A stretch of 34,611 bases of DNA from Candidatus Moraniibacteriota bacterium (lineage in GTDB: Bacteria > Patescibacteriota > Minisyncoccia > CAIUEV01). Below the pieces are notes generated by a model. The model saw only the letters and a list, made by a program, of their open reading frames with translations, searched no databases and was not told the DNA's origin. Within the stretch, counting starts at the first letter, position 1, and the number at the start of each line of letters is the position of its first letter. A program made the translations under genes and the position numbers. Shown here piece after piece: positions 9,364 through 34,611 of this stretch. The stretch lies in NCBI GenBank assembly GCA_016867255.1, contig VGKB01000003.1, forward strand, positions 1 to 34,611, in the 5' to 3' direction.

Positions 9364-9373
9364 ACTTTGGTGA

Positions 9374-11598: not shown

Positions 11599-11601
11599 CG
11601 G

Positions 11602-11650: not shown

Positions 11651-11653
11651 GTT

Positions 11654-13114: not shown

Positions 13115-13165
13115 GATAAAAGATAGAAAATGGATAATGGAAAATGGAAAATAAATATACTTTTT

Positions 13166-14674: not shown

Positions 14675-14765
14675 TTGGCATTCTCCAATTATACGAAACG
14701 ATAGAATATATTATAGATATAGTATAATATTTGCATATATTAACATTAATTTTTGATTTAGCCTC

Positions 14766-16592: not shown

Positions 16593-16612
16593 AAATAAAT
16601 ATAATTTTAAAA

Positions 16613-17590: not shown

Positions 17591-17593
17591 AAA

Positions 17594-17866
17594 CTACTTT
17601 TTCTTGTTGGAACGCAATTTTTTATACAAGTGCCTTTTTTTGCGGGCGGCGGTATTTTTTTTAATTACGTTTTTTTGGGCGGCCCGGTCAATTATTCTTT
17701 GGGCCTCTCGCAAAATTTTATTAATCTTGGTTGGATCAACATTTTCAGCGATGTGTTTTTCGGCTTTTTTGATGATGTCTTTAACTCTTTTTTTAACGAT
17801 AGTGTTGCGAATTCGGTTTTTTTGAGCGACCTTTAGGTATTTTTTTGCGGCTTTTTTAATGGGCAT
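17594..17866 (-). CDS. rpsT: 30S ribosomal protein S20
   Basis: MPIKKAAKK...IDRAAQKNVIKKNTAARKKRHL. Confidence 0.93.
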   Translation of the reverse strand: MPIKKAAKKYLKVAQKNRIRNTIVKKRVKDIIKKAEKHIAENVDPTKINKILREAQRIIDRAAQKNVIKKNTAARKKRHLYKKLRSNKKK

Positions 17867-17916
17867 GTGAAAAATTTAATTTAGGGATTTAAGTTGGTTT
17901 CTTAAACTTCCGTAAC

Positions 17917-17945
17917 AATCTACGAATTATTAAAGATAATGTCAA
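17917..17945 (-). promoter_or_regulatory. Putative sigma70 promoter for rpsT
   Basis: Minus strand TTGACA (17945-17940), 17 nt, TAGATT (17922-17917). Confidence 0.6.
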
Positions 17946-18012
17946 ATTATCCCACTTTTAAAATTGGTGATAAAATAACAAAAACTCAAAGAAATTTTGT
18001 GACCATTAGATT

Positions 18013-19143
18013 ATGCCGCCCCAAAAAAAGAAAGTGAAGAAAATAGAGGAGAATGACCGGTCTTATAAAAAAGAGCTGCCCGATGGTAAACTATGGCTTA
18101 ACTTGCTTCGCTGGGCGGCGGTTTTTGCAACAGTTTTTGTTATTGGTCTTATGGTTACTGTTTGGGGGATATATCAAAAAAATTGGCAAAATTATTTTAT
18201 TGAGGCGTTTGAGAAATCCATTCCCTTTCCTGCGGCAAGTATTGGATATGGAGGTTGGATTAGTATTGCCGAATTTAACAGTAAGACAAAGGCCATAAAA
18301 GTCTTTTTGGAAGGGCGGGAAGTGGTTTTCCAAAGGGGGATATTTGATTTTTCTACTCCGGAAGGGTTAAGAAGACTTGAAGTGATTAAGAAAAACGTCT
18401 TGAATCAGGCAATAGAGAATAAAATTATGGAGATTGAAGCCGAGAAAAGAGGAATCCAAGCAGATAGGAGCGAAATCAAAGATATTAGCAGGAAGATTTT
18501 AGAAAGAGACAATAAAAGAGAGGAAAATCTCAATCAATTAAAATTGATGTATAATTGGGGCGAAAATGATTTTTCAGAGCAGATTGTTAAAAAAATGGTA
18601 ATTAAGGGAAAATTGGAGGAGAAGCTAAAATCATCCGGGGAACTAAATGCCGCCGCGAGAAAGAAAGTCAATATCGTCAGGGAAAAAGTTGAACGGGGAG
18701 AAAACTTTGAAAATGTTGCTCGTGAGTACAGCGAAGCGTCAAGCCGCCAATACGGCGGGCTACTTCCGCCCTTTAGCCAAAATGAATCTCCCGAAGAATT
18801 CAAGAACACCGCCTTTTTGTTAGGGGAGGGTGAGGTAAGTGAACCGATAGAGACTGAAAATGGCTGGCAAATTATCAAGCTAGAGAGAAGCTATCCGGAA
18901 GGGGGCGTAAAGAAAGTAGAGATAAGGCATATTTTGATAAACAAAAACAGCTTTGACAGTTGGGTGGCGGAAAGAAAGAAGGCGGAAAAAGTGAAAGTAT
19001 TTTTAAAACCCTATTATTGGCATTCTCAAATGGGCAGATTATATTTTAAGGATGAGGAGTTAAACGGTTTTGAGGATCAAATCAATAGGGAATACCTGGA
19101 AGAGAGGTCGCAAGAAATTGATTTTATAATTAACACTGAGTAA
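18013..19143 (+). CDS. PrsA/SurA-like parvulin peptidyl-prolyl isomerase
   Basis: N-terminal TM, SurA-N-like helices, FENVAREYSE..YGGLL..F..GEVSEPIETENGWQIIK. Confidence 0.88.
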   Translation: MPPQKKKVKKIEENDRSYKKELPDGKLWLNLLRWAAVFATVFVIGLMVTVWGIYQKNWQNYFIEAFEKSIPFPAASIGYGGWISIAEFNSKTKAIKVFLEGREVVFQRGIFDFSTPEGLRRLEVIKKNVLNQAIENKIMEIEAEKRGIQADRSEIKDISRKILERDNKREENLNQLKLMYNWGENDFSEQIVKKMVIKGKLEEKLKSSGELNAAARKKVNIVREKVERGENFENVAREYSEASSRQYGGLLPPFSQNESPEEFKNTAFLLGEGEVSEPIETENGWQIIKLERSYPEGGVKKVEIRHILINKNSFDSWVAERKKAEKVKVFLKPYYWHSQMGRLYFKDEELNGFEDQINREYLEERSQEIDFIINTE

Positions 19144-19161
19144 GAATAGTAAACGTAAAAA

Positions 19162-19770
19162 ATGGGCAAAATCAATCAAAAAAACAAATTAGTGGAAGAA
19201 CTGAGAATTATCGGAAGCGGATTCATTGACCCTGAAACAGTGGCGGCTGACTGGAACATAAAAAAAGGGGAAGTAGTCGCCGATTTAGGTTGCGGCGGCG
19301 GATATTTCACTATCCCTACCGCCAGGATGGTTGGCGATGAAGGGAAGGTGTATGCGGTAGACGTGATGGAAGGGCCTATAGAATCAGTAAAGAGCCGTGC
19401 TTATCTGGCTGGGTTAAGTAATATTATCGCGATAAGAGCTGATTTGGAGGGGAAAGAATCTCTTTCAAAATGGGTAAAGGCGGGAGAATGCGATAAAGTG
19501 CTTTTAGCTAACGTGCTTTATACTTCAAAAAAGAAGAACGCTATAATTAGCGAAGCAAGGAGGATATTGAAGAAAAAAGGAAACTTAATTGTAGTTGAGT
19601 GGAAGAAAAAAATTGAAGAAGGCCAAGAAAAAATAAAATATTTTGGTCCTCCGGAAAAGACCAGGATTAGCGGGAAAGAGCTTAAAGACATGCTCAAAAA
19701 GTCCGGATTTAAATTTATTCGGGGTTTTGAAGCGGGTAACTTCCATTTCGGTATGGTACTGGAAAAATAA
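19162..19770 (+). CDS. Class I SAM-dependent methyltransferase
   Basis: VADLGCGGGYF, VYAVDV, RILKKKG. Confidence 0.88.
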   Translation: MGKINQKNKLVEELRIIGSGFIDPETVAADWNIKKGEVVADLGCGGGYFTIPTARMVGDEGKVYAVDVMEGPIESVKSRAYLAGLSNIIAIRADLEGKESLSKWVKAGECDKVLLANVLYTSKKKNAIISEARRILKKKGNLIVVEWKKKIEEGQEKIKYFGPPEKTRISGKELKDMLKKSGFKFIRGFEAGNFHFGMVLEK

Positions 19771-19789
19771 TCAATAACATTTATCGTCC

Positions 19790-22147
19790 GTGGGTAGAAG
19801 AAAAAAGAAAAAAGAAATTGACTCAGAGTTGAAAGAGGGAGAATTAAATATATCCAGTACGGCAGAGCGGTGGCTTATAGGGGTATTGGCTTGGGGGATA
19901 GCGTGTATTGTTGTTCTGAGTCTTTTTAACGAAGCCGGAATTGTGGGAAAATATTTAGGGAAAGGAATGGTTGAAATTTTCGGCTGGGGAAAGTATTTGA
20001 TTCCATTTATTCTTATGGTAAGCGGCTACTGGATTATCCGGCAGGAAAGATTAGCCCATCCCTATTATCGGGTAAACGGGCTCTTTTTAACTTTTATTTG
20101 TGCGCTGGCAATTTCATCTTTGGTTAGTAACGGGCTGGAAGGAAAGGTAAACTTGCCTGTCATGAAATCGGCCGGCGGTTACGTGGGGTTGGCGTTGGGG
20201 TATGCGGCAAGTTACTTGGGTTTTTGGGGCGGTTTGATAATTTTAATCACCCTATTTTTTGTAGGGATAATATTGTTGCTTGACGGATACTTCAGGAAAG
20301 TTGAATCAGCGGAAAAAGAACAGATTTCAGCAAAGACCGAATTTGCTGAATCAGAAATAATTGAAAAGGAAGGAGAAGAGGCGAAGGAATTTTTGGCTCA
20401 GGGTTTTGTTTTAGAAAAAGACAATTGGAAAAACTCTCTCCTCCACACCCTGAGAAAAGTAAAAAACAAACTTATAAAAAACAAGAGAAATGGGGCATTG
20501 CAAGATCTAGAGGCCTTTGGGGATAAAAAGAACCAAACTAATGAAGCTTCTTTTTCAGGGACGCCTTCAGAATCTGGGAAAAATAAAAAAGGGAGCCAAC
20601 ATTTGAAAGTAAAGATAATTCCGGGATTGAATGAGAATTGGAAATTTCCTTCACTTGACATTTTGGAGAAAAATACTACCAAGGCGGTTGCGGAAGACAT
20701 CAAAACCAATTCAGCCGCGATTAAAAAGACATTGTTAAATTTTGGAATACCGGCGGAAGTGGCGGAAGTGAATGTGGGTCCAACGGTTACCCAATACGCT
20801 ATTAAGCCGGCAGAAGGGATAAAATTGAGCCGAATAACTGCAATCCAGAGCAATTTGGCTATGTCCTTGGCGGCTCATCCTATAAGGATTGAAGCCCCTA
20901 TCCCCGGTCGCTCTCTGGTGGGAGTTGAAGTGCCCAATAAAGTCAAAAGGGTCGTGAATCTCTGCGAATTGATAGAAGACCCGGCTTTTAAAGAATCGCC
21001 GGAAAAACTATTAATCTCTCTCGGAGAGGACCCGGCGGGAAATTATGTTTACGCCGATCTTTCTGAAATGCCCCATTTGCTTATTGCCGGCGCTACGGGT
21101 TCGGGGAAAAGCATTGACATTAATTGTCTAATTGCCAGCTTGCTCTACCGCAACACACCCAGAGAGATGAAAATGATCATGGTAGATCCTAAAAGAGTGG
21201 AGCTTTCAATTTTTAATAATATTCCGCATTTGCTAACCCCGGTTATTGTGGATCACCACAAAGTTGCCAATGCTCTCAAATGGGCAGTGTCAGAGATGGA
21301 GAGGAGATACATAGTTATTCAGGAAACAATGTCGCGCAATATTGTATCATATAACCAGAAAGTGGTGGACGGGGAAATTGAGCCGGAGGTGGTTAAAGAA
21401 ACCGGCGAAATAATTGAACCGGAATTTATGCCCTACATTGTAATAATAATTGACGAGTTGGCTGATTTAATGTCTTCTCCCTATGCCAAAGAGGTGGAAG
21501 CCCTTATTGTGCGGCTGGCGCAGATGTCACGGGCAGTGGGAATTCACTTGGTGCTTTCTACCCAGCGCCCTTCGGTAAATGTCATCACCGGCATAATCAA
21601 GGCAAATTTTCCCACGCGGATTGCGTTTCAGGTGGTCTCTCAAGTGGATTCCCGCACTATTCTGGATATGTCTGGCGCGGAGAAATTGTTGGGAAGAGGC
21701 GACATGCTCTATTTGCCGAAAGAGTCTAATCAACCCAGGCGCATTCAAGGGACTTATATTTCCGAGAAGGAAGTGCAAAAGATCGTGGACCATTTAATTG
21801 AACAGGAGGTAGCGAGCTACAATCCTACTGTGATTCAGTCCGTTGGACCGGAAATTGAAGGGAAGATGAGTAATCAGGGGGAGGAAGATGAATTATATAA
21901 TCAAGCGCGGGAAATTGTTTTGAGAGACAATAGGGCTTCAACTTCGTTGCTGCAAAGACATTTACGGATTGGTTACTCCCGGGCGGCAAGAATAATGGAT
22001 TTATTAGAAGAAAATGGGGTTATCGGCCCGGCGGAAGGATCGCGCCCGAGGCAAGTGATAAAAGGCAGTGGAAATGAGGAAAGCAAAGAAATTAATTATG
22101 AAAATCCGGCGCAAGATCAAGAGAAAAGAGATAACTGGACGCAATAA
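19790..22147 (+). CDS. ftsK: DNA translocase FtsK/SpoIIIE
   Basis: 4-TM N-terminus; PHLLIAGATGSGKS; IIIDELADLM; gamma domain ASTSLLQRHLRIGYSRAARIMD. Confidence 0.97.
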   Translation: MGRRKKKKEIDSELKEGELNISSTAERWLIGVLAWGIACIVVLSLFNEAGIVGKYLGKGMVEIFGWGKYLIPFILMVSGYWIIRQERLAHPYYRVNGLFLTFICALAISSLVSNGLEGKVNLPVMKSAGGYVGLALGYAASYLGFWGGLIILITLFFVGIILLLDGYFRKVESAEKEQISAKTEFAESEIIEKEGEEAKEFLAQGFVLEKDNWKNSLLHTLRKVKNKLIKNKRNGALQDLEAFGDKKNQTNEASFSGTPSESGKNKKGSQHLKVKIIPGLNENWKFPSLDILEKNTTKAVAEDIKTNSAAIKKTLLNFGIPAEVAEVNVGPTVTQYAIKPAEGIKLSRITAIQSNLAMSLAAHPIRIEAPIPGRSLVGVEVPNKVKRVVNLCELIEDPAFKESPEKLLISLGEDPAGNYVYADLSEMPHLLIAGATGSGKSIDINCLIASLLYRNTPREMKMIMVDPKRVELSIFNNIPHLLTPVIVDHHKVANALKWAVSEMERRYIVIQETMSRNIVSYNQKVVDGEIEPEVVKETGEIIEPEFMPYIVIIIDELADLMSSPYAKEVEALIVRLAQMSRAVGIHLVLSTQRPSVNVITGIIKANFPTRIAFQVVSQVDSRTILDMSGAEKLLGRGDMLYLPKESNQPRRIQGTYISEKEVQKIVDHLIEQEVASYNPTVIQSVGPEIEGKMSNQGEEDELYNQAREIVLRDNRASTSLLQRHLRIGYSRAARIMDLLEENGVIGPAEGSRPRQVIKGSGNEESKEINYENPAQDQEKRDNWTQ

Positions 22148-22171
22148 AATAGAAAAAAGTTACACATTGTG

Positions 22172-22312
22172 ATGGTTATAAAACTCCCCATTTTAATTTT
22201 TTTGTGGGACGCCCGCCTGCGCCGAGGCTTCGGCGGGCAGGTCGCCTGAGAGGCATTAACTGCAATGCGAGCTAGATACAAAAAAATTAAAAAAGTTGAG
22301 TTTTATAACCAT
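22172..22312. repeat. Nested inverted-repeat element (candidate structured ncRNA or MITE)
   Basis: 15-bp perfect IR 22172-22186/22298-22312 and 13-bp perfect IR 22193-22205/22278-22290 enclosing GC-rich hairpins. Confidence 0.7.
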
Positions 22313-22367
22313 TTTTCTCTATACCTGAGCTAAATTTCATAAAAATTTTATCTGGATTTAATAATCG

Positions 22368-23930
22368 TTGTGGTATGGTGGGTGCATGAAACATACCAGT
22401 CGAGTTAAATCATGCGCCGTGGTCGGTTTAGACACCGTTATTGTGGATGTAGAAACTGACTTTTTCCCAGGAATCCACAAATTTAATATTGTGGGATTGC
22501 CGGATGCCGCCATTAAAGAGTCCCAACAAAGGGTTGGATCTGCCCTGAAAAATAGCGGCGCCGTTCCTCCGTATCGGCTGGGGGTGGTAATTGTTAATTT
22601 GGCTCCGGCCGATTTACGCAAGGTGGGAGCGGTTTACGATCTTCCGATAGCAATTGGGATATTGTCGGCCAGCAGCCAAATCCGTTCCAACTCTTCCTAT
22701 TTAAAGGACAGTCTTTTTGTGGGCGAACTGGCCTTAAATGGAGATCTAAGAGGAGTAAAAGGGGTGTTGCCGATTGCCTTGTCTGCAAAAAATGCCGGCT
22801 ATAAAAACTTATTTATCCCTGAAGCCAATGCCAGCGAAACATCGGTCGTTAAAGGACTGAGAGTGTATCCCGTGAAAAATCTAGAGCAGTTGATGCTATT
22901 CTTTGAAGAGGAAAAAAACATTACTCCCTTTAAAGTCTTCCGGGAAATTAGCATTAAGCCAAAATATCTTTTTGATATGAGAGAGATTTGCGGCCAGGAA
23001 CACGTTAAACGGGCTATGGAAATTGTGGCAGCTGGGGGACATAATGTTTGTCTTATTGGACCGCCGGGCTCGGGCAAGACCTTAATTGCGAGAACTTTTC
23101 CTAGCATCCTTCCTGAAATGGGGTTGGAAGAATGTCTGGAGACTACCAAAATATTCAGCGTCGCGGGTAAATTAGATGACAGTAATCCGCTGGTAAGAGA
23201 ACGGCCTTTCCGGGCGCCTCATCACACCTCTTCTAATATTGCTTTGATTGGGGGCGGGACTAACCCTCATCCCGGCGAAATAAGTCTTTCTCATCGGGGC
23301 GTGCTATTCTTGGATGAATTTTTGGAGTTTCCGGCCAAGACTTTGGATTGTTTGAGACAACCTTTGGAGGACGGAATTATTACCATTTCCCGGGCGGCGG
23401 GCTCAGTTACCTTTCCAGCCCGTTTTATTCTTATTGCCGCTATGAATCCTTGTCCTTGCGGCTACGCTACTGACACGGAAAAGGAGTGTACTTGCAACGC
23501 TAACGCCATTAGCCGGTATCAAAGGAAATTGTCCGGTCCGATTTGTGACCGAATTGATATTTTTGTGGACGTTCCCCGAGTCAAGTATGACAAGCTAACC
23601 GGAGAAGGAGGGAGAGAATCGTCCGAAGAAATTCGTGAAAGGGTGCAAAAAGCCAGAGACATTCAAAGTTTGCGCTTTAAGGAAAACGCGATATTTTCTA
23701 ATGCGGAGATGAACAATCAGTACATAAAAAAATATTGCCAATACGGTCAGGAGACAAAGGATATCCTTATTGAAGCTATCAGGAAATTTCATCTTTCCGC
23801 CCGGAGCTACTTTCGGACGCTTAAAATCGCCCGTACCATCGCAGATCTTGAGAATTCTGGCCAAATTGAAACGCGGCATGTGGCGGAAGCGCTCCAGTAC
23901 CGTTTTCAGGGCGAATCATTAATTTCTTAA
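22368..23930 (+). CDS. comM: ComM/YifB Mg-chelatase-like AAA+ ATPase (ATG at 22386 is the likelier start)
   Basis: VGLPDAAIKES, NLAPADLRK, GPPGSGKT, RPFRAPHH, LFLDEF, MNPCPCG, ARTIADL. Confidence 0.95.
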   Translation: MWYGGCMKHTSRVKSCAVVGLDTVIVDVETDFFPGIHKFNIVGLPDAAIKESQQRVGSALKNSGAVPPYRLGVVIVNLAPADLRKVGAVYDLPIAIGILSASSQIRSNSSYLKDSLFVGELALNGDLRGVKGVLPIALSAKNAGYKNLFIPEANASETSVVKGLRVYPVKNLEQLMLFFEEEKNITPFKVFREISIKPKYLFDMREICGQEHVKRAMEIVAAGGHNVCLIGPPGSGKTLIARTFPSILPEMGLEECLETTKIFSVAGKLDDSNPLVRERPFRAPHHTSSNIALIGGGTNPHPGEISLSHRGVLFLDEFLEFPAKTLDCLRQPLEDGIITISRAAGSVTFPARFILIAAMNPCPCGYATDTEKECTCNANAISRYQRKLSGPICDRIDIFVDVPRVKYDKLTGEGGRESSEEIRERVQKARDIQSLRFKENAIFSNAEMNNQYIKKYCQYGQETKDILIEAIRKFHLSARSYFRTLKIARTIADLENSGQIETRHVAEALQYRFQGESLIS

Positions 23931-23939
23931 ACGTAGATT

Positions 23940-24371
23940 ATGGATGACTCTCGCAAACTGCGCGGTTCCTTTGCCGAGGGAATAGCGATAAACTTTTTAA
24001 AAAAGAAGCGATTTAAGATTATCACTGCTAATTATCAGTACCGAGGCGGGGAGATAGACATAATTGCGTTTGACCCCCGAAAAAAAGAATTGGTATTTGT
24101 GGAAGTGCGTAGTAAATGGTGCGATAGTTTGGCAAAGGATTGGCAGACTATGCCAATTATACCGGAGGATAGTGTGAATAAGACGAAATTCCACAAGATT
24201 GAAAAGACTGTCTGGTTTTTTCTGGAGAAGGAAACCGTGTCTTGGCAAAGATACGCCGGGAATTTACCCCGGTATTCCTTTCCGGAATGGCGAATTGACC
24301 TAATCAGCGTGACTATTGAAAAATATACCAAAACAGCCCAGATAAGGCACTATGAATATTTATTTTTTTGA
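23940..24371 (+). CDS. yraN: YraN-family PD-(D/E)xK nuclease
   Basis: G..AE..A..FL..K.F.II..NY...GGEIDIIA..LVFVEVR, WRIDLISV; adjacent to comM. Confidence 0.9.
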   Translation: MDDSRKLRGSFAEGIAINFLKKKRFKIITANYQYRGGEIDIIAFDPRKKELVFVEVRSKWCDSLAKDWQTMPIIPEDSVNKTKFHKIEKTVWFFLEKETVSWQRYAGNLPRYSFPEWRIDLISVTIEKYTKTAQIRHYEYLFF

Positions 24372-25811
24372 TTTCCGCTGAGTGATCTTTATTTTGTAAT
24401 CCCAGTTGTCTCTTTTTTCTTTTCCTTCTATGAAAATATGATTGGGGTAGTTCTGCACCGCTTTTTGAAATTGGCTTTCAGAGGGATAAGGAAGCACCCC
24501 GTAACGCAAAATTAATTTTCTGGTTAAGGGATTGTGATTGCCGACGTAGCAAAGCAAAGGGACATTCAAACGGAAATTGGAGAGTTTGGTAATAAAAGAT
24601 GCCGGGACGCGCGACAGAATAATTGCTTTGGGATGCATTTCCTCCGTTAAGTTACCGATTGTATGAATATTCATTTCCTCGCTGTTTCCGGGTGTTTTGG
24701 AGCGGATTTTCAGTAATTCCGGGATTTTATTCTGGTCGTCAAAATGGGATTTTTCAGTAGTCTTTATGATTTTACTCATTGTCGCGACGGAACGGACGGG
24801 ATATTTGCCGTTAGCCGTTTCACCCGATAGCATAAGAGAATCCGCTCGATCAATTACCGCGTTGGCAACATCGGTAAGCTCCGCTCTGGTGGGTCGGGGT
24901 AAAATTGTCATTGATTCCAGCATATTGGTGGCGACTATTACCGGAATATTGTTTTTAATACAATGCCTGATTAGTAATTTTTGGTATAGAGGGACTTTCT
25001 CCTGCGGGGCTTCAATGCCCATGTCTCCTCTGGCCACCATAGCGGCATCCGCTACGGCTAGAATTTCTTTGATGTTATGAAGAGCGGCGAGGGTTTCAAT
25101 TTTTGCCACCACTTCGGGCAACCCCTTTCTTCTCCCTAAAATTTTAACCATTCTTTTCCGCAAATTAATGATGTCATTGGCGTCTTTGACAAAGGAAAGC
25201 GCAACAAAGTCAACTCCTTGCTTTAGGGCAAAGTGTAAATCAGCGGAATCTTTAGAAGTGAAGGAAGGAATATATCGGGCTAACGTAGGGAAGTTTATTC
25301 CTTTTCTAGTTTTAATCAGGCCGTCGTTTTTCACTTCCATCTCCCAACCCTGTTTTTTTCGGTTTTTTTCTGCTGTAAGTTCTACCGTGCCGTTATCTAA
25401 ATAGACTTTGTCTCCCGTTTTTAATTTTCCCAACAAAGAAGTGTCAGAGTCAATCAGGATTTGTTTTTCTAGATATCCGGGCAGTCTTTTGGAAGAGCGA
25501 TTTTCTTTAAGGAGGATCCTGTCGCCGCGATTGAATTGCAGCTTAGAAATTTTGATTTTCTTGTCTTGGAGTTCGGCGATTCTAATGCGCGGTCCCTGAA
25601 TATCGGCCATTATACCAAGACATTTTTGGGCCTGATAAGCGGCGTGGCGTAAGTTTATTATGGCTTGAAAGTGCCAATCGTGGGATCCGTGAGAAAAATT
25701 CAATCGCGCCACGTCCATGCCGGCTTTAATCATTGCTTTTAAGGTTTCCCGTTTTTCGCAGGCGGGGCCGATAGTGCAAACTATTTTTGTTAAATCGTCT
25801 TTTCTTTTCAT
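24360..25811 (-). CDS. pyk: Pyruvate kinase
   Basis: TKIVCTIGPA, ARLNFSHG, AKIET, MVARGDMGIE, PTRAELTDVANA, MLSGETA.GKYP. Confidence 0.96.
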   Translation of the reverse strand: MKRKDDLTKIVCTIGPACEKRETLKAMIKAGMDVARLNFSHGSHDWHFQAIINLRHAAYQAQKCLGIMADIQGPRIRIAELQDKKIKISKLQFNRGDRILLKENRSSKRLPGYLEKQILIDSDTSLLGKLKTGDKVYLDNGTVELTAEKNRKKQGWEMEVKNDGLIKTRKGINFPTLARYIPSFTSKDSADLHFALKQGVDFVALSFVKDANDIINLRKRMVKILGRRKGLPEVVAKIETLAALHNIKEILAVADAAMVARGDMGIEAPQEKVPLYQKLLIRHCIKNNIPVIVATNMLESMTILPRPTRAELTDVANAVIDRADSLMLSGETANGKYPVRSVATMSKIIKTTEKSHFDDQNKIPELLKIRSKTPGNSEEMNIHTIGNLTEEMHPKAIILSRVPASFITKLSNFRLNVPLLCYVGNHNPLTRKLILRYGVLPYPSESQFQKAVQNYPNHIFIEGKEKRDNWDYKIKITQRKSKK

Positions 25812-25914
25812 GGCAATATCAATAACAATAGTAAATATTAAAATTACATATCAAAATTTAAAACTGTCTAAATCTTAAAATTTTAATTTGTCGTTTTGAT
25901 ATTTGATTTTTGAT

Positions 25915-26505
25915 TTATTCTATACAACAGTTTACCGCTTTTTTGACTAATTCGCCTAATTTTCCGAGCAGCCCTTGGGGTTTTTTTGCGCCGGGAATTT
26001 TTTGGTTTATTCCCAGTTTTTTTAATTTATCCATAACGGCTTTGTCAACTAATTTAGACTCGCCGGGCTTAATGACATCCATGTTGATTCCCCAAAACAG
26101 CAAGTAAAGCTCGTAACTTAGCTTAAACATCTCCTTGGCGGTATCCTCGCTGCCTTCCTTGAGGTGTTTAGTGCCGACTTCCATGAGGCGCATGCTGCCG
26201 GAAAGCAGGTGCTTACTAGTGCACCATACTTCCCCTTCGTATTCTTTAACAATCCTTTTAAGCAGGTTTTTGCGCATTTCCCGAACTGTTTTAAGCAGTG
26301 CAAAGTAGCCGTCTTTTTCAGTCTTTTCGGCGGTGAAAAAGAGATGTTCTTCAATGGCGATTAAGTTCATGATAGCCAAACTTAAGTCTTCGTCGGTTGA
26401 GAGATCAAGCTTATTGTCCCGCTTCAAATCGTTAATTTTTTTGACAAACTCGGCAATTCTCTCTTCAGTGAGCAGATTTTCAAGTATGTCGTTATGGCTG
26501 GGCAT
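25915..26505 (-). CDS. Hypothetical helical protein, possibly metal-binding
   Basis: 196-aa ORF overlapping the upstream transporter stop; IEEH, WCTSKH and terminal NCCIE motifs. Confidence 0.75.
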   Translation of the reverse strand: MPSHNDILENLLTEERIAEFVKKINDLKRDNKLDLSTDEDLSLAIMNLIAIEEHLFFTAEKTEKDGYFALLKTVREMRKNLLKRIVKEYEGEVWCTSKHLLSGSMRLMEVGTKHLKEGSEDTAKEMFKLSYELYLLFWGINMDVIKPGESKLVDKAVMDKLKKLGINQKIPGAKKPQGLLGKLGELVKKAVNCCIE

Positions 26506-27559
26506 TCTGGTTGTTGCTTAAATATTTTTTTTCAAATATTTCCAGAAGAGCGAAAAATATTGTTACTAAAAGCGGACCGATTACAAAGCCCATAATGCCA
26601 AATTCCAATATTCCGCCAAACGTTCCAATTAAAATCCACAAAGGATGAAGCGCCGTGTCGCTGCCGATTAACTTGGGGCGCAAGAAATTATCCACCGATC
26701 CGATAATGAAACTGCCAAAGAAGAGTAGCACCAACCCTTTTATCCAGAAACCGGAGACGATGAGCCAAATGGCCACGGGCAGCCAGATTATTACTGGCCC
26801 GATAAGGGGAAGAACGGAGAAAATCCCCATTATTACTCCCCAAAGAAAGGGGGCGCCAATGCCTAATGCCCAAAAGGATAAACCGCCCAACAACCCTTGC
26901 ACAATGCCAATAATAATTGTTCCTTTTATGGTCGCGCGGTTCATTGACAAAAAACGGTTTAAAATAATTTTTTCGTCTTTACTGGAAAGAGGCGAGATTT
27001 GGAAGAGAGAGCGAATAAATCTATTTCCATCCAAGAAAAGGTAATACAAAGCGAAAAGCATAACGAACGCCAAAAATATGAATTCGCTGATCTTTTGGTA
27101 AGCTCCGGTTAAAAAATTCGCCGCCAGACTCGTCGCCTTTTTTAGCCCTTCCGAAAAATCAATCTGATTGAGTGAATTTTCTACTTTACTTTGGTCTATG
27201 CCGAAGCTTTGAAAATAAGACGACAAGGAATTTTGAAGACTTTTTTGAATTTCAAAAAAAGGGACTGGCTCTTTAACCATACTTTTATAAAGCTCGGAAG
27301 CTTCTTTTGCGGCAATGCCCCCAATTATAAAGAAAGGCAAAACTATAATAATGGCCACCAAAAAACAAGTAATTAGCGCAGAAGTCTTGGGATGGCGGGT
27401 GATTTTTCCAAGATAATCAAAGACCGGGTTGAAAAGCTGCCAAAAAATAAAGGCCATAAGAAGAGTGGCCATGAAGGGCAAAAACATCTTAAAAACCGCT
27501 ATTCCGATCAAGATAATTAACGCAATTAGGAAATAACGGCTAATGTTTTGACGAAACAT
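26492..27559 (-). CDS. AI-2E (PerM/UPF0118) family transporter
   Basis: Multi-TM; VDNFLRPKLIG..LHPLWILIGTFGG..FGIMGFVIGP. Confidence 0.92.
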   Translation of the reverse strand: MFRQNISRYFLIALIILIGIAVFKMFLPFMATLLMAFIFWQLFNPVFDYLGKITRHPKTSALITCFLVAIIIVLPFFIIGGIAAKEASELYKSMVKEPVPFFEIQKSLQNSLSSYFQSFGIDQSKVENSLNQIDFSEGLKKATSLAANFLTGAYQKISEFIFLAFVMLFALYYLFLDGNRFIRSLFQISPLSSKDEKIILNRFLSMNRATIKGTIIIGIVQGLLGGLSFWALGIGAPFLWGVIMGIFSVLPLIGPVIIWLPVAIWLIVSGFWIKGLVLLFFGSFIIGSVDNFLRPKLIGSDTALHPLWILIGTFGGILEFGIMGFVIGPLLVTIFFALLEIFEKKYLSNNQNAQP

Positions 27560-27616
27560 AAAATTTAGTTACTTTTAATATTGATAAACTAACAGATTTT
27601 TTAATTTTAGAAAAAT

Positions 27617-27838
27617 ATGAAAGAGATTTTGTCGCTTGTCCAAATTATTTCATCCGTACTTCTTATTGTGGTAATTTTACTGCAAAATCGGGAAGGCGGC
27701 GTATCCGGTATTTTAGGGGGAGAGGGAGTAGGCGGATCGTTTTATACCAAAAGGGGTATTGAAAAAAGTTTGCTGTACGCGACAATAATTTTAGCCGTTA
27801 TATTTGTCGGCAGTGCCATACTGAGCTTTCTCAGCTAG
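27617..27838 (+). CDS. secG: Preprotein translocase subunit SecG
   Basis: Two TMs; ILLQNREGGVSGILGG..KRGIEK. Confidence 0.93.
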   Translation: MKEILSLVQIISSVLLIVVILLQNREGGVSGILGGEGVGGSFYTKRGIEKSLLYATIILAVIFVGSAILSFLS

Positions 27839-27899
27839 TTTTTTATCTGCGCTGCAATAATAAGGTTGCTGCAACAAGGCCGTGAGTCCGAGGAACGCT

Positions 27900-28799
27900 T
27901 CAATTCTGAAGCAGGTAAGCGTCCAATAGCGATTTGGGGCTTGCTCCCGAAAAAGATTGGGATTGGTCTATAAAATCTAAAATTAAGCGTAATTTATCCA
28001 GCGTAGGCGCAGAGCTTTCTCTTGGTTTTTTCTGGAGATCTTTTTTTAGCAGTTCCGTGAGTCTTATTGCCTCAAATTGAAAAAAATCTAGAATTTTGGA
28101 ATTGCTGTCCCCTAGCTGTTCACTGCCTAATTTTAATTTATTGGCGGGAGAAAGTTTTTTTTGTTTTTCGTGAAAATCAGACAGTTCCCAAAAGCGATTA
28201 TAATTTTGGGACATTTTGGCGGCGTTCCCCAAATTCAGGCCCGACCAGGAGAGAATATTTTTCCTTTCAGCGTAAGACATTTCCGGGTGATTTCTTTGAA
28301 GGTATTTTGTTAATAATTGGGGGGATTTTAAATTTAAATTCAAGATGAGCGAGCGGGATAAAATAGTCGGAAGTATCTTATTTTTTTCCGGGGAGAGCAG
28401 AAGCAAATACCGGGACCGTTGGGGTTCTTCCAGAGTCTTAAGCAGGGCATTTTGTGACGGGTGAGTTAGATGTTGAGCGCTTGGGACAATGCCTATTTTA
28501 TAAGGAAGATTCTGGGACGAGAGGGACAAAAGATAGATAAATTGGCGAACCTGCTTTACTTCAATGGTGTTTTTGTCTTTTTCCTTCTCTAACACTATAA
28601 TGTCCGGGTTGTAGCGGGTGTTGCGCGCGCAAATTCCCCGAGCTTTGTTTGGTCCGACAAGCAGTTTGATGATTTCGTCCCCAAGCCACTTCCATTCGTG
28701 TTCCGAGAACCCTGCCAGCAGTAGGGGCGGTCTTTCTTTGTTTTTTGTCCAACTGGAAAGTGCCTTATGGAGTGAAGGGAAATAAGTTTTTATCAGCAT
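27900..28799 (-). CDS. holB: DNA polymerase III delta' subunit
   Basis: PDI, IEVKQVR, LTHPSQNALLKTLEEP, ILPTILSRS; P-loop and Zn module degenerate. Confidence 0.85.
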   Translation of the reverse strand: MLIKTYFPSLHKALSSWTKNKERPPLLLAGFSEHEWKWLGDEIIKLLVGPNKARGICARNTRYNPDIIVLEKEKDKNTIEVKQVRQFIYLLSLSSQNLPYKIGIVPSAQHLTHPSQNALLKTLEEPQRSRYLLLLSPEKNKILPTILSRSLILNLNLKSPQLLTKYLQRNHPEMSYAERKNILSWSGLNLGNAAKMSQNYNRFWELSDFHEKQKKLSPANKLKLGSEQLGDSNSKILDFFQFEAIRLTELLKKDLQKKPRESSAPTLDKLRLILDFIDQSQSFSGASPKSLLDAYLLQN

Positions 28800-30619: not shown

Positions 30620-31645
30620 TTAAATAAGCATTTTTTTAAATTTTTCTACCATTGCCACCGGCGTGGGGTCAATTCCGTAAAGCAGCGCCAGGTAATAAGA
30701 GGCGAAACAGCCGATCTGAAGGGTGGAAAAGATCCGGTGGATTATTTCTCCTTCTGGCATTTCTATAATTGTAGATTCAAAATTGTATTCTTTCAAAATT
30801 TTAGCTGTTTTTTCAAACCGCTTAAGGTTCTGGGGGTAATCGTCTCTGTTGCGCAGGTAAATAAAATGGAAATTAGCCTGTGGAAGAGTAAATCCCACCA
30901 TTTCATTATGGTTTAACTCTGGGAGATAGTTCCAAAAAGCCGGCGTCTTGGCGTTCTCATTGAACATAATTTTCCAAATCATGGCCAGCGAGCGGTATTG
31001 GTAAGAGGCGTAAATTATAGGGGTCTTGCCCTTTACTTTTTTAGCGATGTCTTCCCCTAGAGCCCTGTATATGGCAAGATCCGCTTTAATTTTTTCCGCC
31101 GTGTCTCGGAATTTAATTAGGGGATCGTTTATTAAGCCCAATACGGAAAAATATTTTAAGATAGCGGAAAGAGCGTAACCGTAGCCCATTCGGGGCTGGA
31201 ATTGCGGGTGGGGTTTAGGAAGGAGGATAAAGGGGATATTTTTTTCTTTGCATACGTCAATCAATTTTCCCCCGCTGGCCATTCCCAAACAATCTAAGTT
31301 ATTTTTTAGGGCTTCCTCAAAGCAGGAGAGGGTTTCTTCGGTGTTACCGGAATAGGAGGAGATGATATTCAGGCAGTTCGGCTCATAAGCTTCTTTTGGC
31401 AAGCTGTAAGAGCGATTGACGTGTGTTTTGATCGCCGTCTCCCGTCTGCTATCTGTTGTCTTAAGATATGTTTTTAGCAATTCTCCCACTAAAGCCGACC
31501 CTCCCATGCCGCTTAGGACGAAAGTGTTGAAATCACCTTTGGGCACGTTACTGCGCACCAATTCCGGCCCCGCAAGCAGCTGCTCGGGTATTTTTTTGAT
31601 TGTTTCCAATAGGTTTTCTTTGTCTATTTCGTGTTGTAGATCCAT
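30620..31645 (-). CDS. Bifunctional phosphoglucose/phosphomannose isomerase (SIS fold)
   Basis: SGMGGSA, SSYSGNTEET, QPR, FNENAKTPA..PELNHNEMVG, DPTPV. Confidence 0.93.
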   Translation of the reverse strand: MDLQHEIDKENLLETIKKIPEQLLAGPELVRSNVPKGDFNTFVLSGMGGSALVGELLKTYLKTTDSRRETAIKTHVNRSYSLPKEAYEPNCLNIISSYSGNTEETLSCFEEALKNNLDCLGMASGGKLIDVCKEKNIPFILLPKPHPQFQPRMGYGYALSAILKYFSVLGLINDPLIKFRDTAEKIKADLAIYRALGEDIAKKVKGKTPIIYASYQYRSLAMIWKIMFNENAKTPAFWNYLPELNHNEMVGFTLPQANFHFIYLRNRDDYPQNLKRFEKTAKILKEYNFESTIIEMPEGEIIHRIFSTLQIGCFASYYLALLYGIDPTPVAMVEKFKKMLI

Positions 31646-31721
31646 ATTTTACTAGTTACAAATGACTAGTTACTTTTTATCTATTTTCTCCCACTTTTTC
31701 TAAAAATCAAGAAATACCCAT

Positions 31722-31796
31722 TGGGGTGGCTAGAGGGAGTTGAACCCTCGTGACTTGCTCCACAGGCAAGCGTTCTACCGTTGAACTATAGCCACC
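31722..31796 (-). tRNA. tRNA-His(GTG), intact, with G-1 and encoded CCA
   Basis: G-GTGGCTA..GTTC/GAAC D stem, CTTGC-CT-GTG-GA-GCAAG, GAGGG-TTCAACT-CCCTC, TAGCCAC-C-CCA. Confidence 0.92.
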
Positions 31797-31840
31797 CCGA
31801 TAGGTATTAATTATTCAAATAATGTACTATGGTACGTTAC

Positions 31841-31862
31841 AGAACACGCCAGGGCGTGTTCT
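31841..31862. repeat. Short GC-rich palindrome (REP-like or terminator)
   Basis: agaacacgcc-ag-ggcgtgttct, with perfect 10-bp arms. Confidence 0.55.
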
Positions 31863-31894
31863 TACACAAATAAACTTATCAGATTTATACTATT

Positions 31895-32452
31895 TTACAA
31901 ATCATTCCAAGATTTTTCCAGGAAGAAGAGCTTATCTAATAAATATATTAAAACTGATGAAGTGAATTGAATTTCCTTATTAGAATAGCTTTTATCGACA
32001 TTTTCCAGTCCTTGTAAATGAATTTTGTTTCTTGATAATCTAACTTTTTCTATTTTTTAAAAATCTTTCTTTGAAAAAATATTTAACCTCAAGCAAACCT
32101 CATTAATTTTTTTAAAATCGGTATTTCTATTCAACTCGAATTTTTCACGTCTGCGTTTACAGACACTCAATCTATATTCATCAACGGAAAACTTAATTGG
32201 AAGGAAGTGTGATTCAAAGCACCTATAATTTTCCAAAAGTCTTTTGTCTTCACTGCTAATCTTTTTCAAATTTCTTTTTAACAACTCATGTGCTAGTGCC
32301 TCAACAATCGAGCAACTCAACATCAAAGCAATTTTATAATATCCGCTTCTTGCTTTGCCTTTTACCTTGCCTGCGTGGCTAATTTGGATAGCAACCTGTT
32401 TGAGGTTCCAAATAATATTTTTTCTTAGAACATCGTCTACTAGATAAATCAT
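31895..32452 (-). pseudogene. HEPN-like protein interrupted by an in-frame TAA (32059-32057)
   Basis: The frame stays open for 53 codons after the stop: KIEKVRLSRNKIHLQGLENVDKSYSNKEIQF...WNDL*; upstream helix LSCSIVEALAH. Confidence 0.7.
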
Positions 32453-32463
32453 CGGGGTTGTTA

Positions 32464-32658
32464 TTATCTAGAACATGCAGCTTTTTCGAGTGCTTCACCA
32501 AGAGAAACGAAACCTTTTTTTTTCAGATATGTACTTAATTTCATATCGGGCTTAACGCCAAGTTTAACGTTGAAGTCTTTTTCAAAGCTTTTTACGGAAA
32601 TGTCTATACAGCGTTTTTTTCTTGAATAACCTATTTTTGCTTGTCGTTTGCCCCTCAT
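32464..32658 (-). CDS. Small basic hypothetical protein
   Basis: 64 aa, K/R-rich; ends 11 nt before the start of the HEPN-like gene. Confidence 0.65.
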   Translation of the reverse strand: MRGKRQAKIGYSRKKRCIDISVKSFEKDFNVKLGVKPDMKLSTYLKKKGFVSLGEALEKAACSR

Positions 32659-32716
32659 GAGTATGATTTATTTACTTTTGTCTATATTATATTATTAAAA
32701 ATGTCAACTTACAAAT

Positions 32717-33394
32717 TTATTTTATTTTCACGCCTAGTTTCCCCAGATCAGATATTTTCTCACTTGAAATTAGTTTATTTTTAATCAGAAAACTTTTTAC
32801 TTTCTCGAAAATAAATTTATGGCCGGTGGAATTGGGGTGGACGCCGTCGGTGATGAATTTTTTGTAATCTAGTTTTGCCACTTCTTTATAAATATCAATA
32901 AAATACACACTATTTTCTTTAGCCACAGATTTCATTGCATGATTATATTTTTCAACATACTTATTCTCATAAGAAAATCCTAGTTTCCAGGGGATGGGAT
33001 TGACTTTACTTTCATCAACTGGAAAAAATCCTACAAAAACAATCTTTTTGGAATAATTATTGGCTAGTTTGATTATTTTTTGGAGATTTTCAGTATAATT
33101 TTCTATGGAAACATTATTCAAGCTCGTTTCATTGTTTAACATACAGTCATTAACTCCAACAGAAACTATAAATAAGTTTTCTTCGTTATTGCCCGCTCTA
33201 GCTTCAACTTCCTTTTCAAATCTGCTAATTAAATCTTGGCTTGTGTTTCCTGAAATCCCTAGATTATACAAAAAACAAGATGATTCGTCTAAATTTTTCT
33301 CATCAATATATTTTCTTAGCCTTCCAACCCAACCACCTTCTTCATCCCAAGCTCCGTAAGTCAGACTATCACCAAAAGCAAAAATATTATCCAT
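32717..33394 (-). CDS. SGNH/GDSL hydrolase
   Basis: FGDSLTYG, NLGISG, GVND, DGVHPN. Confidence 0.93.
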   Translation of the reverse strand: MDNIFAFGDSLTYGAWDEEGGWVGRLRKYIDEKNLDESSCFLYNLGISGNTSQDLISRFEKEVEARAGNNEENLFIVSVGVNDCMLNNETSLNNVSIENYTENLQKIIKLANNYSKKIVFVGFFPVDESKVNPIPWKLGFSYENKYVEKYNHAMKSVAKENSVYFIDIYKEVAKLDYKKFITDGVHPNSTGHKFIFEKVKSFLIKNKLISSEKISDLGKLGVKIK

Positions 33395-33479
33395 AATTAG
33401 TTTTATTTATTTTAACAGCCCAATAACTTGATTCTAAGCCATATTTTGACTGTTTCCTTGGGAAAGTCATTGTCCAAGC

Positions 33480-33541
33480 GGACTCGAACCCACAGCCACC
33501 AGGACCACAACCTGGCGCTCTACCATTGAGCTACTACCACC
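33480..33541 (-). pseudogene. 3'-truncated tRNA-His(GTG), positions -1 to 62 only
   Basis: GGTGGTAGTAGCTCAATGGTAGAGCGCCAGGTTGTGGTCCTGGTGGCTGTGGGTTCGAGTCC, followed by sequence that cannot complete the T stem or acceptor stem. Confidence 0.85.
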
Positions 33542-33606
33542 AAGACAGCCATAAGCCGTAAGCCATAAGCTGTTTAATTTATTCTACCTCAACTTTTCTA
33601 ACTGGT

Positions 33607-34467
33607 TTAGAGTAGCAGGTTTTGTAAGGTTTTGTCAAAATTTCTAGTTAAAAATTCCCAAATTTTTTTAATTATCTCCCAAGAACTGCTTTCTTTTGCT
33701 TGAAGGCCTATATTAGCATTTTCAAATTCGGTAGCTGTTTTTTTGGCTATTTCCCGGTCTTTTTCGTCCACCGGGCCGGGGTAATTACAATCTTTTTCTA
33801 TATTGCCAAGAACATTTTGAGAAAATTTATTGTCGGTTAATTTGATTGATTCGTACCAATAGTAATCAGGCGGCTGTTTGCCTTCGGGAATAGAGCAGTC
33901 AATCCCGTATTTCTGGTTTTTCTCAAAACCGTTCTGGAACAATTTAATCTTTCCCTCGTCTCTAGTAAAAGTGTAAAATTGCAAGGCCAAACCGCTGGCG
34001 CCGTTGCCGGAAAAAACATTTTTATTAATTTCTAAATTGGTTTTTCCTACGATGAGCTCTATCCCGCTTTCGCCGTTATTTTCAAACTTATTGTTAGTTA
34101 TAAACCCGCTTATGGCGTTTCTTACGTCCAGACCTTCTTCTTGACAATGAGATATGTTGGAGTTGTAAATATTAACGGTCCTTCCCGGCTGAATATACAA
34201 TCCTTTGCCGGCCTGGCTGGTTATTTGGGAGTCGCTGATCGTTACGGTTCCGCTTCCAGGCAGGGCCTCTACGGCGATTTTCTTATTGGTGTTAATGATA
34301 CAATTTTTTATGGTCACATTGGCATCGCCTTCTATCACAATGCCAGAACTGCCGCTTAAAACGGCATCTTTCAAAAAATCACCGTCTTTTAGCTGGATGA
34401 TGCCATTATCTGAAGCATTAACGGCAATAGGCAAAAAAAATAGGAAAAACACCCAACATTTTTTCAT
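33607..34467 (-). CDS. Secreted right-handed parallel beta-helix (pectin-lyase-like) protein
   Basis: Signal peptide; repeated N-ladder units (ITNNKFENNGESGIEL, INKNVFSGNGASGLAL). Confidence 0.82.
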   Translation of the reverse strand: MKKCWVFFLFFLPIAVNASDNGIIQLKDGDFLKDAVLSGSSGIVIEGDANVTIKNCIINTNKKIAVEALPGSGTVTISDSQITSQAGKGLYIQPGRTVNIYNSNISHCQEEGLDVRNAISGFITNNKFENNGESGIELIVGKTNLEINKNVFSGNGASGLALQFYTFTRDEGKIKLFQNGFEKNQKYGIDCSIPEGKQPPDYYWYESIKLTDNKFSQNVLGNIEKDCNYPGPVDEKDREIAKKTATEFENANIGLQAKESSSWEIIKKIWEFLTRNFDKTLQNLLL

Positions 34468-34610
34468 TTTATTTGATTGTAATTGCGAATGAAATTGCTG
34501 GGACTGCGCCAGTATTCCAGTTTCGTGCGCAGCGTACCTTCGCGGTAATATCCCGGCAGCACAGCGCCCTTCCAGGGGCCTAGATAAATCGCAAAATGTA
34601 GATGAGTGGG
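34464..34610 (-). CDS. M23-family metallopeptidase C-terminus (partial at window edge)
   Basis: Manual translation PTHLHFAIYLGPW...SPSNFIRNYNQIK*; HLHF zinc motif; TGA overlaps the next ATG (ATGA). Confidence 0.7.
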   Translation of the reverse strand, partial: PTHLHFAIYLGPWKGAVLPGYYREGTLRTKLEYWRSPSNFIRNYNQIK

Positions 34611-34611
34611 C

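Follow-up and report, generated by a model that had tools for sequence, protein, structure and literature searches.

The window analyzed here is the 34,611-nt contig VGKB01000003.1 (C3) of a Candidatus Moraniibacteriota bacterium (GCA_016867255.1). It belongs to a genome assembly of 870 kb in 105 contigs, here called G000, with a GC content of 43% and a completeness of 95%. We describe an AT-rich islet in this window that lies between two tRNA-His genes and carries the putative scar of a large serine recombinase (LSR) gene. Read along the minus strand, the locus contains a truncated tRNA-His gene, an SGNH hydrolase gene, a 64-aa open reading frame (ORF), a HEPN-like ORF of 131 aa, a GC-rich palindrome, and an intact tRNA-His gene. 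ARAGORN, Rfam, and direct reading of the sequence agree on this order and on one truncated and one complete tRNA-His, as proposed in an initial annotation made from the sequence alone. The GC content is 25 to 38% across positions ~31800 to 33400, compared with 43% genome-wide, in keeping with the AT-rich interior noted there.

The possible misassembly at position 33480 that the initial annotation had raised is excluded, and the assembly is sound at this point. Contigs of two runs from Logan, X1 (31600 to 34113) and X2 (31600 to 34611), both possibly source samples, span the position, one X2 contig running several kb past each end of the compared stretch, and short contigs of X3 (33233 to 33546) and X4 (33424 to 33575) bridge it, each with 0 differences. 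Comparisons were made with five genomes of the same family (G001 to G005), with the sister family f2 (which includes G013), and with metagenome contigs from relatives (L037 to L040); each tRNA-His copy was searched against 60 relatives plus G000. The features of the locus and of one related element are listed in Table 1.

Table 1. Features of the tRNA-His locus (window coordinates) and of a whole element in another genome
Feature	Position	Strand	Basis
Intact tRNA-His(GTG), CCA encoded, G-1 at 31796	31722..31795	-	ARAGORN; Rfam tRNA model, 69 bits
Proximal native leader AATACCTATCGGG, complementary to trailer 31713-31721	31796..31808	-	Inverted repeat I1; leader kept in relatives
Putative inserted AT-rich islet, ~1.77 kb, inside the leader of the resident tRNA-His	31809..33576	-	GC content; interrupted homology to L037/L038
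GC-rich 20-nt palindrome, GAACACGCC..GGCGTGTTC	31842..31861	.	One copy in genome
Broken HEPN-like gene, family length ~170 aa	31896..32452	-	Read-through homologs; fold of homolog P0003
64-aa basic protein, conserved upstream partner of the HEPN-like gene, antitoxin-like position	32464..32658	-	
SGNH/GDSL hydrolase cargo gene, apparently intact	32717..33394	-	Pfam
Putative element end: 16-nt terminal repeat (minus strand TTGGACAATGACTTTC) and last ~17 LSR codons (plus strand LDSKPYFDCFLGKVIVQ), stop codon before	33427..33477	+	
Putatively foreign tRNA-His 5′ part, G-1 to ~position 63	33478..33541	-	Rfam partial match; sequence reading
Putatively foreign leader, ~35 nt, that came with the truncated tRNA; 14-nt tandem duplication 33547-33573 (repeat D12)	33542..33576	-	
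Distal native promoter/leader, TGCTACTCT extended -10-like box, overlaps beta-helix stop codon	33577..33618	-	88% over 42 nt to L037/L038
LSR element of G535:C16, ~15.7 kb, 16-nt terminal inverted repeats (15/16)	~2168-17949 of L132		

Resident and imported tRNA-His genes

A genome-wide count with ARAGORN gives 42 tRNA genes in the 105 contigs, of which the intact gene of the window is the sole tRNA-His. Genes of its type are present in 5/5 same-family genomes at 77 to 90% identity (66/73 positions to G001, 66/74 to G002, and 56 to 59 of 72 to 74 to G003 through G005). At all five loci the tRNA-His adjoins orthologs of the PGI and PMT genes of the window, which are 45 to 58% and 69 to 71% identical, respectively. 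The leader and trailer pair as inverted repeat I1 (31713 to 31735 and 31786 to 31808), with 23-nt arms that are 87% complementary, and so lengthen the acceptor helix of the precursor. The proximal 13 nt of the leader are likewise found in G001, G002, L037, and L040, and the trailer and its complementarity to the leader in G001 and G002. This pairing may be a processing signal for the tRNA-His precursor of the family. Because its type, its PGI and PMT neighbors, its leader, and its trailer match those of the family genomes, we take the intact gene to be the ancestral resident gene.

The islet appears as an interruption in the upstream sequence of this gene. Homology between the window and L037/L038 extends from 33618 to 33577 (88% over 42 nt), stops at 33577, and restarts at 31808 to run to 31736, and the 1.77 kb between has no counterpart; with L037 to L040 together, blastn homology covers the same 31808-to-31736 segment. 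In L037/L038 the promoter-like box, the leader, and a family-type tRNA-His are contiguous, and the upstream region of G001 resembles the same promoter and leader. The edges of the islet bear the imperfect direct repeat GAATAA(A)TTAA, at 33574 to 33584 and at 31807 to 31816. No counterpart of any of the three islet genes was found in the five family genomes; in the class, 7/401 genomes, counting G000, have a member of the HEPN-like family, and the SGNH gene is patchy, being present in 4/61 relatives including G000. These comparisons support acquired DNA inserted in the leader of the resident gene. Since the native promoter is now 1.8 kb away, transcription of the resident tRNA-His would have to depend on read-through or on a promoter within the islet.

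The genes upstream of tRNA-His differ among G000, G001, and G002. Orthologs of the G001 upstream neighbors lie at the start of contig C38 in G000, and those of G002 lie elsewhere in the window (13181 to 17866). In this family, tRNA-His has a fixed PGI/PMT side and a rearrangement breakpoint on its upstream side.

The truncated copy is a second Rfam tRNA match at 33476 to 33535 on the minus strand, with 37.6 bits over model positions 6 to 65 only. It retains G-1, the acceptor 5′ strand GTGGTAG, the D arm, the anticodon arm (CCAGG/TTGTGGT/CCTGG), and the T arm, and lacks the end of the T stem and the acceptor 3′ strand. It shares its anticodon with the intact gene and differs from it in stems throughout (GTGGTAG versus GTGGCTA in the acceptor, CCAGG versus CTTGC in the anticodon stem), with 41/64 positions identical (64%). 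The description of the two copies in the initial annotation is correct, as is its statement that they are not a simple att duplication. The truncated copy is also only 44/64 identical to the tRNA-His of G001 and G002. We consider it foreign and imported, because it matches the resident gene at only 41/64 positions compared with 53 to 54 of 65 (~83%) for tRNA-His of the sister family f2 and of other families. A YrlA-like Rfam match at the truncated tRNA (23.6 bits, compared with a gathering score of 69) was rejected as a resemblance of the D arm.

The initial annotation had assigned the opposite roles to the two genes. In that proposal an incoming element destroyed the resident tRNA-His at 33478 to 33541 and supplied the gene at 31722 as a whole replacement, which made the islet hard to lose and might pair an RNase with a cleavage-resistant tRNA. 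A promoter and leader of native type do stand upstream of the truncated copy, G000 has a single functional tRNA-His, a related element in genome G535 (described below) holds a complete tRNA-His within a split one, and in L037 to L040 the truncated copy is of the family type. For G000 this history is contradicted because family synteny places the intact gene as ancestral: the gene, its leader, its trailer, and the adjoining PGI and PMT genes are orthologous to those of 5/5 family genomes, none of which has a junction of the kind described below. In addition, the truncated copy is remote from the tRNA-His of G001 and G002 and has a foreign 35-nt leader, and the HEPN-like gene is broken and belongs to a family with a tRNA gene at 0/6 homolog loci. 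We therefore give the replacement scenario next to no likelihood here. What stands is that the islet was acquired and is the remnant of an integrative element at a tRNA gene; which copy was imported has to be reversed.

Putative recombinase scar

The truncated tRNA continues, past its T-stem/acceptor junction, into a 16-nt terminal repeat and the ~17 final codons of a putative LSR gene. G013 was the genome whose match to the truncated copy ran past the truncation point, and a junction pattern was built on that match. With up to 3 mismatches allowed, the pattern occurs in 3/401 genomes of the class (G000, G009, and G013). Exact matching of a looser pattern gave three records (G009, G013, and G401) in a collection of 185,579 species and four metagenome contigs, with 0 matches in viral contigs. 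The junction loci of G401, G013 (contig C5), and G009 (contig C49) are referred to as L034, L035, and L036. At every junction the 5′ part of a tRNA, tRNA-His or (in G009) tRNA-Gly, ends at the T-stem/acceptor junction. It is followed by TT[GT][GA]ACAATGACTTT, of which ACAATGACTTT is invariant, and then by ~40 more similar bases. The tRNA parts of the truncated copies are 52 to 82% identical among themselves, and the family-type 5′ parts are damaged, the D loop of L037 having a 20-nt insertion and L040 having lost its anticodon loop.

At the L034 junction, the conserved sequence on the opposite strand forms the 3′ end of an intact LSR gene that encodes a 548-aa protein with the domains Resolvase (6.5e-27) and Recombinase (1.3e-13); Zn_ribbon_recom, at 0.0019, is under the cut-off. 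Read on the LSR strand after the stop codon, the corresponding sequences are LDSKPYFDCFLGKVIVQ in the window, DDFKPLFVSHRKVIVQ in L034, and LDFKPYFQLRKVIVQ in L037. The scar of the window is identical to L034 at 17/17 nt and, farther in, to L037 through L040 at 19/20 nt. By direct translation, its in-frame ..KPYF....GKVIVQ matches ..KPLFVSHRKVIVQ. The window contains no Resolvase or Recombinase gene, and G000 as a whole contains no serine recombinase (no tblastn match at 1e-3 and 0 matches in a second search); the initial annotation was right that no integrase is present and that the islet would be a remnant, with ~17 terminal codons left. An intact tRNA-His was not found in G401, which has 47 Rfam tRNA matches, 46 of them typed with ARAGORN, and which does contain the truncated copy beside the LSR gene. 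The functional tRNA-His of G401 presumably lies in the unassembled part of the element.

We consider it probable that the islet is an immobile, recombinase-less remnant of an LSR-type element, lodged in the leader of the ancestral tRNA-His. Its upstream end would derive from LSR elements of Patescibacteria for which the T-stem/acceptor junction of tRNA-His (once tRNA-Gly) is the site of recombination, with the LSR catalyzing the formation of the tRNA junctions. The islet would consist of an element fragment plus a piece of its former target, the LSR end abutting the tRNA 5′ half. The truncated half would have arrived as flanking DNA, or as a nested target, from a former host or element. The LSR gene would have been cut down to ~17 codons, with the SGNH gene and the two-gene HEPN-like module as the remaining cargo, and the islet would have no present role in tRNA-His supply.

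Several observations weigh against this interpretation. The link of the window to an LSR comprises ~51 nt, and the protein similarity (D/E-S/L-N-P) is partly dictated by the T arm itself; the remnant in the window was missed by tblastn with the L034 LSR at E values up to 100. L034 is the sole junction-type locus that keeps an LSR, and its contig ends inside the element. The islet edges carry only the imperfect 10- to 11-nt AT-rich repeat and not element terminal repeats. A search of the G000 assembly for the far end expected of an element, with another terminal repeat and the corresponding 3′ half CTACCAC, was negative. The 35-nt foreign leader has no similarity to L037/L038 or to the other compared loci; BLAST gave chance-level matches only, and no donor lineage was identified. 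The perfect duplication in G009, described below, suits an element-borne 5′ part better than imported flanking DNA, and members of the family may differ in this respect. Two candidates for a far end in G000, a 2-mismatch match to the repeat on C83 and a motif match on C9, were both judged to be chance, and BLAST of the right end of the islet against all compared loci likewise gave chance-level matches only.

The conservation of the junction might instead reflect selection on the truncated tRNA and its ~55-nt conserved extension, as a tRNA-like noncoding RNA gene or as a cis site that, for example, lets recombinase-less islets move in trans. Although 6/7 junction loci inspected have lost the LSR gene, their conserved stretches have nearly the same end point, and in the window the truncated tRNA stands behind the native tRNA-His promoter and gives the weak YrlA-like match. 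That match is far under its gathering score, the tRNA part is only 52 to 82% conserved and is grossly damaged in L037 and L040, the conserved part reads in frame as an LSR C terminus, and G000 has no cognate LSR. A selected RNA or site of this kind is very improbable.

Several side observations concern the junction loci. In L037/L038 and L039/L040 the tRNA-His 5′ halves decay differently, by the 20-nt insert in the D loop (a GC-rich palindrome) and by loss of the anticodon loop, respectively, and ~190 nt after the junction are identical between the two pairs. The downstream MATCAP-like proteins in these metagenome contigs are mosaics that are identical close to the junction and have diverged toward their far end. 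These features suggest that the islet was recently exchanged between strains. Defense-type genes cluster at the scars in G013 (a gene with a Shedu SduA_C domain, with DUF2130), in G009 (a gene that resembles an N6-adenine DNA methylase by eye), and in L040. In the last, a canonical HEPN (PF05168) and nucleotidyltransferase (NTP_transf_2) pair lies just upstream of the tRNA-His promoter, a different place from that of the window pair. G009 and G013 also share a conserved segment of ~35 nt (TTAATCTACCAA..AAAATAATAAAG) upstream of their truncated tRNAs.

Whole elements and routes of arrival

A search with the LSR C terminus returned 11 proteins including the query, which have ..VVAIEP..FKPLFVSH[RK]K..Q in common. 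Past this C terminus, four tails read as the antisense T arm (GELNP, GESDP..HCHR, AESDPR, and ADSNP). The remaining seven were read by hand as the sense 3′ end of tRNA-His, such as ..ATP from GCC ACC CCA. All 11 members read thus end in tRNA-His sequence in one of two orientations. In a phylum-wide search, close LSRs were found in 3/401 genomes.

A whole element is present in G535 (contig C16, positions 8500 to 28000 of which are locus L132). The LSR gene is followed by GCCCCATCAGTCACCC and the 3′ half of a tRNA-His. About 15.7 kb away, the 5′ half of a tRNA-His is joined to TTGAGCAATGACTTTC, an inverted copy (15/16) of the repeat at the LSR end, and the 16-mer of the window corresponds to both ends of this element. 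Some 95 nt into the element there is a complete second tRNA-His, with the acceptor GTGACCA/TGGTCAC. The acceptor GTGACTG of the 5′ half is exactly complementary to CAGTCAC of the 3′ half and not to the acceptor of this second gene. No further close tRNA-His match was found in the G535 genome. The LSR has Resolvase and Recombinase domains and stands at the opposite end of the element compared with L034. The cargo includes a type I restriction-modification system, Fic, BRO-N, an HTH_17 protein, and a tyrosine-integrase-like protein; the genes for the last two lie beside the spare tRNA and could constitute a second, nested element. The best reading of this locus is that an element split the resident gene and came with a spare tRNA-His of its own. 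The replacement of a tRNA-His by an element, proposed initially for the window and wrong there, is the most economical reading of G535.

G444 and G009 show other arrangements. On contig C2 of G444 the order is an intact tRNA-His, ~15 kb, the LSR gene, and a 3′ fragment directly before tRNA-Arg, with no 5′ half plus repeat in 39.5 kb. In our reading this is the classical arrangement, in which the element supplies the 3′ end of the tRNA. G009 has a recombinase-less islet of 3.1 kb that is flanked by a truncated and an intact tRNA-Gly, the two being identical over 66 nt. As a tentative and still doubtful generalization, the LSR family of Patescibacteria may attach at the T-stem/acceptor junction of the single-copy tRNA-His in either orientation, split the gene, and compensate with a tRNA-His of its own on which the host then depends; remnants that keep the terminal ~50 nt might move in trans.

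The islet might have arrived in G000 by illegitimate or short-homology recombination at the AT-rich repeat, as imported flanking DNA, or by way of several nested, decaying elements at a hot spot. Import as flanking DNA is described for tRNA islands of Prochlorococcus in a passage of a preprint (10.1101/2020.12.28.424599). The hot-spot view has some support, because both the contents of the interval from the M23 peptidase gene to the tRNA-His promoter and the upstream neighbors vary among relatives. In the window the interval is occupied by a beta-helix gene, in L038 by a 235-aa ORF, and in L040 by a HEPN/MNT pair.

A history of accretion or nesting at the locus is unlikely in our view. In one form, the truncated half would be the tRNA-His of an older element, split by a second LSR element; in another, positions 1 to 63 of the intact gene and its leader would have been delivered from a close relative onto the native 3′ end. 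Elements of the family carry tRNA-His genes that are themselves targets, as in G535, and in G009 a perfect 66-nt duplication (tRNA positions 1 to 65) flanks the recombinase-less islet. The variable M23-to-tRNA-His region in the window, L038, and L040 and the location of the G001 upstream neighbors on another contig (C38) in G000 also fit such a history, and the same preprint, in the part that treats tycheposons, describes serial insertions and scattered partial tRNAs (10.1101/2020.12.28.424599). Against it, the sequence upstream of the truncated copy shows neither another terminal repeat nor the end of an older element, the two parts of the native leader join as expected for one simple insertion, and the complementarity of leader and trailer speaks for the intact gene being a single native unit. 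A remnant of an LSR-type element in the native leader is the reading that we retain.

Gene content of the islet

The HEPN-like gene appears to be inactivated by a nonsense codon and to be a pseudogene in G000. The 131-aa ORF (32057 to 32452) ends at an in-frame TAA at 32057 to 32059, beyond which lie 53 more in-frame codons. This TAA is codon 132, six codons before the invariant R138..R141-N-K-I-H145, and is confirmed in contigs of X1, X2, and X3. The read-through, with the TAA as X, matches 57 other proteins of 167 to 187 aa, covering 86 to 95%; all are unnamed, and those with a source name come from bins of the Patescibacteria group. R138, R141, N142, and H145 are invariant in 19 sequences. 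The usual HEPN motif is RNxxxH, within Rx4-6H; R138 to H145 fits Rx6H, and the RN..H spacing is one residue shorter than in RNxxxH.

The intact homolog P0003 was modeled with a predicted local distance difference test (pLDDT) score of 93.5. Of its 15 best VIA matches, 14 are HEPN or HEPN-like domains, HEPN toxins among them, with Z scores of 9.0 to 11.3 and root-mean-square deviations of 2.5 to 3.9 Å over 108 to 130 residues. Other results count against a HEPN assignment. Z scores of 9 to 11 are within the range that helical bundles can reach by arrangement alone, and Foldseek against PDB gave no match at an E value of ≤0.001 (all above 0.26, with HEPN entries at 0.3 to 1). No Pfam profile, NCBIfam HEPN profile, or PADLOC match was found for the 131-aa ORF, and a Pfam scan of the read-through gave DUF7584 only, at an E value of 0.14. 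The HEPN-like module of the initial annotation stands as far as the fold of the homolog model and the invariant motif are concerned, with the qualification that the gene itself is broken.

The 64-aa protein has 2 homologs and no Pfam, NCBIfam, or PADLOC match. At 5/6 homolog loci, a 56- to 61-aa ORF or a tblastn match to this protein lies directly upstream of the HEPN-like gene. The pair resembles a toxin-antitoxin-type module and would represent a new HEPN-fold family; in G000 it is dead. No tRNA gene is present at any of the six loci with HEPN-like homologs; together with the broken gene, this leaves the proposed pairing of an RNase with a cleavage-resistant tRNA without support. The SGNH gene matches PF13472 (Lipase_GDSL_2) at 2.6e-26 and PF00657 at 1.5e-22, contains the GDS (FGDSLT) and DGVHP motifs in translation, and is present in 0/5 family genomes.

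Other features lie in and around the islet. The GC-rich palindrome gives a single match in the 105 contigs at ≤3 mismatches; it is not followed by a T run and was not called by terminator prediction. A 24-nt imperfect direct repeat (79%), at 33391 to 33414 and 33563 to 33586, brackets a 172-nt block with the truncated tRNA and the LSR remnant; this repeat and the 14-nt tandem duplication could be marks of a separate small insertion event. Between the M23 peptidase gene (34464 to 34611) and the tRNA-His promoter, the window encodes a secreted-looking, right-handed beta-helix protein (33607 to 34467; Pfam Beta_helix, 2e-19). Its gene was not found in the five family loci (up to 16 kb each) or in L037 to L040, and it may, too, have been acquired. 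A second, full-length M23 gene is located on contig C69 and is closer to the M23 gene of L040.

Significance

In G000 the islet would be ordinary decayed mobile DNA, with no control of tRNA-His supply and no working RNase. The proposed tRNA-replacement/RNase cassette is unsupported here, and because the islet lacks both properties, the idea is not worth pursuing in this genome. The 11 proteins form a coherent LSR family whose 3′ end abuts tRNA-His in every member read. No description of such LSR elements in Patescibacteria was among the literature matches listed, which is not proof that there is none. With the G535 element, the replacement of a tRNA by mobile DNA can be tested directly. In bacteria with tiny genomes and single-copy tRNAs, such elements could influence the choice of tRNA gene in a lineage, and their short symmetric sites and tRNA target may interest those who seek new serine integrases.

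Comparison with known systems

The HEPN-like family resembles the HEPN toxins HepT/MntA, SO_3166/SO_3165, and Abi in the four-helix HEPN-like fold of the P0003 model (Z scores of 10 to 11 to 2hsb, 5yep_B, 8xdj, and 7ae2), in an invariant Arg...His motif in helix 121-140, and in a small partner gene immediately upstream. It differs from them in its motif, R-x2-R-N-K-I-H (Rx6H, or Rx3H from the RN pair), and in a beta-hairpin insert at 65 to 97. Unlike that of HepT/MntA, the partner is a protein of 56 to 64 aa of no known family and not an MNT nucleotidyltransferase. PrrC and RloC have an N-terminal ABC-type ATPase fused to the nuclease and are linked to tRNA or restriction genes; the window family, by contrast, is a single domain of ~170 aa with a tRNA gene at 0/6 loci.

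The locus also resembles the tRNA gene (tDNA) islands found by Islander/TIGER, having an intact tDNA and a fragment in the same orientation, both tRNA-His(GTG) on the minus strand with the 5′ fragment upstream. As in tDNA islands, a fragment of the same isoacceptor marks compositionally odd acquired DNA, and the crossover is at the T-stem/acceptor "J" site. A passage of PMC4383910 allows a 5′ fragment as an Islander configuration but reports it as rare, in 159/3919 islands. Unlike an Islander island, the window has a fragment that matches the resident tDNA at 41/64 positions and is not a near-identical copy (G009, with 66 nt, does have one), and it has no integrase gene. The islet furthermore lies in the leader and not inside the tDNA, and the associated recombinase is an LSR. 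Serine recombinases were not known to target tDNAs in 2014, according to part of PMC4383910. The tycheposon islands of Prochlorococcus, in the part of 10.1101/2020.12.28.424599 that describes them, are similar in that integrases are lost and partial tRNAs and foreign flanking DNA pile up beside a tRNA; there, the recombinase is of the tyrosine type in 910/937 elements and an LSR in the others. An integrase reading frame that crosses the crossover is known for the tyrosine integrases of Mx8 and SSV, as a passage of PMC4383910 notes, and the LSR reading frame likewise crosses the crossover into tRNA sequence. In contrast to the classical tyrosine-integrase case, the LSR family uses a serine recombinase, leaves 5′ fragments or split genes, and in one instance carries a spare tRNA.

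LSR elements that split their target genes include SPbeta in spsM, A118 in comK, and Bxb1 in groEL1. The elements described here are like such phage-type LSR elements in having short dyad sites (the 16-nt terminal inverted repeats), in splitting the target without a long duplication, and in placing the recombinase gene at one end of the element (L034, G535, and G444). They differ in that the target is an essential single-copy tRNA, with compensation by a spare tRNA-His in G535 or, in our reading, by a 3′ end in G444, and in that both orientations relative to the tRNA occur.

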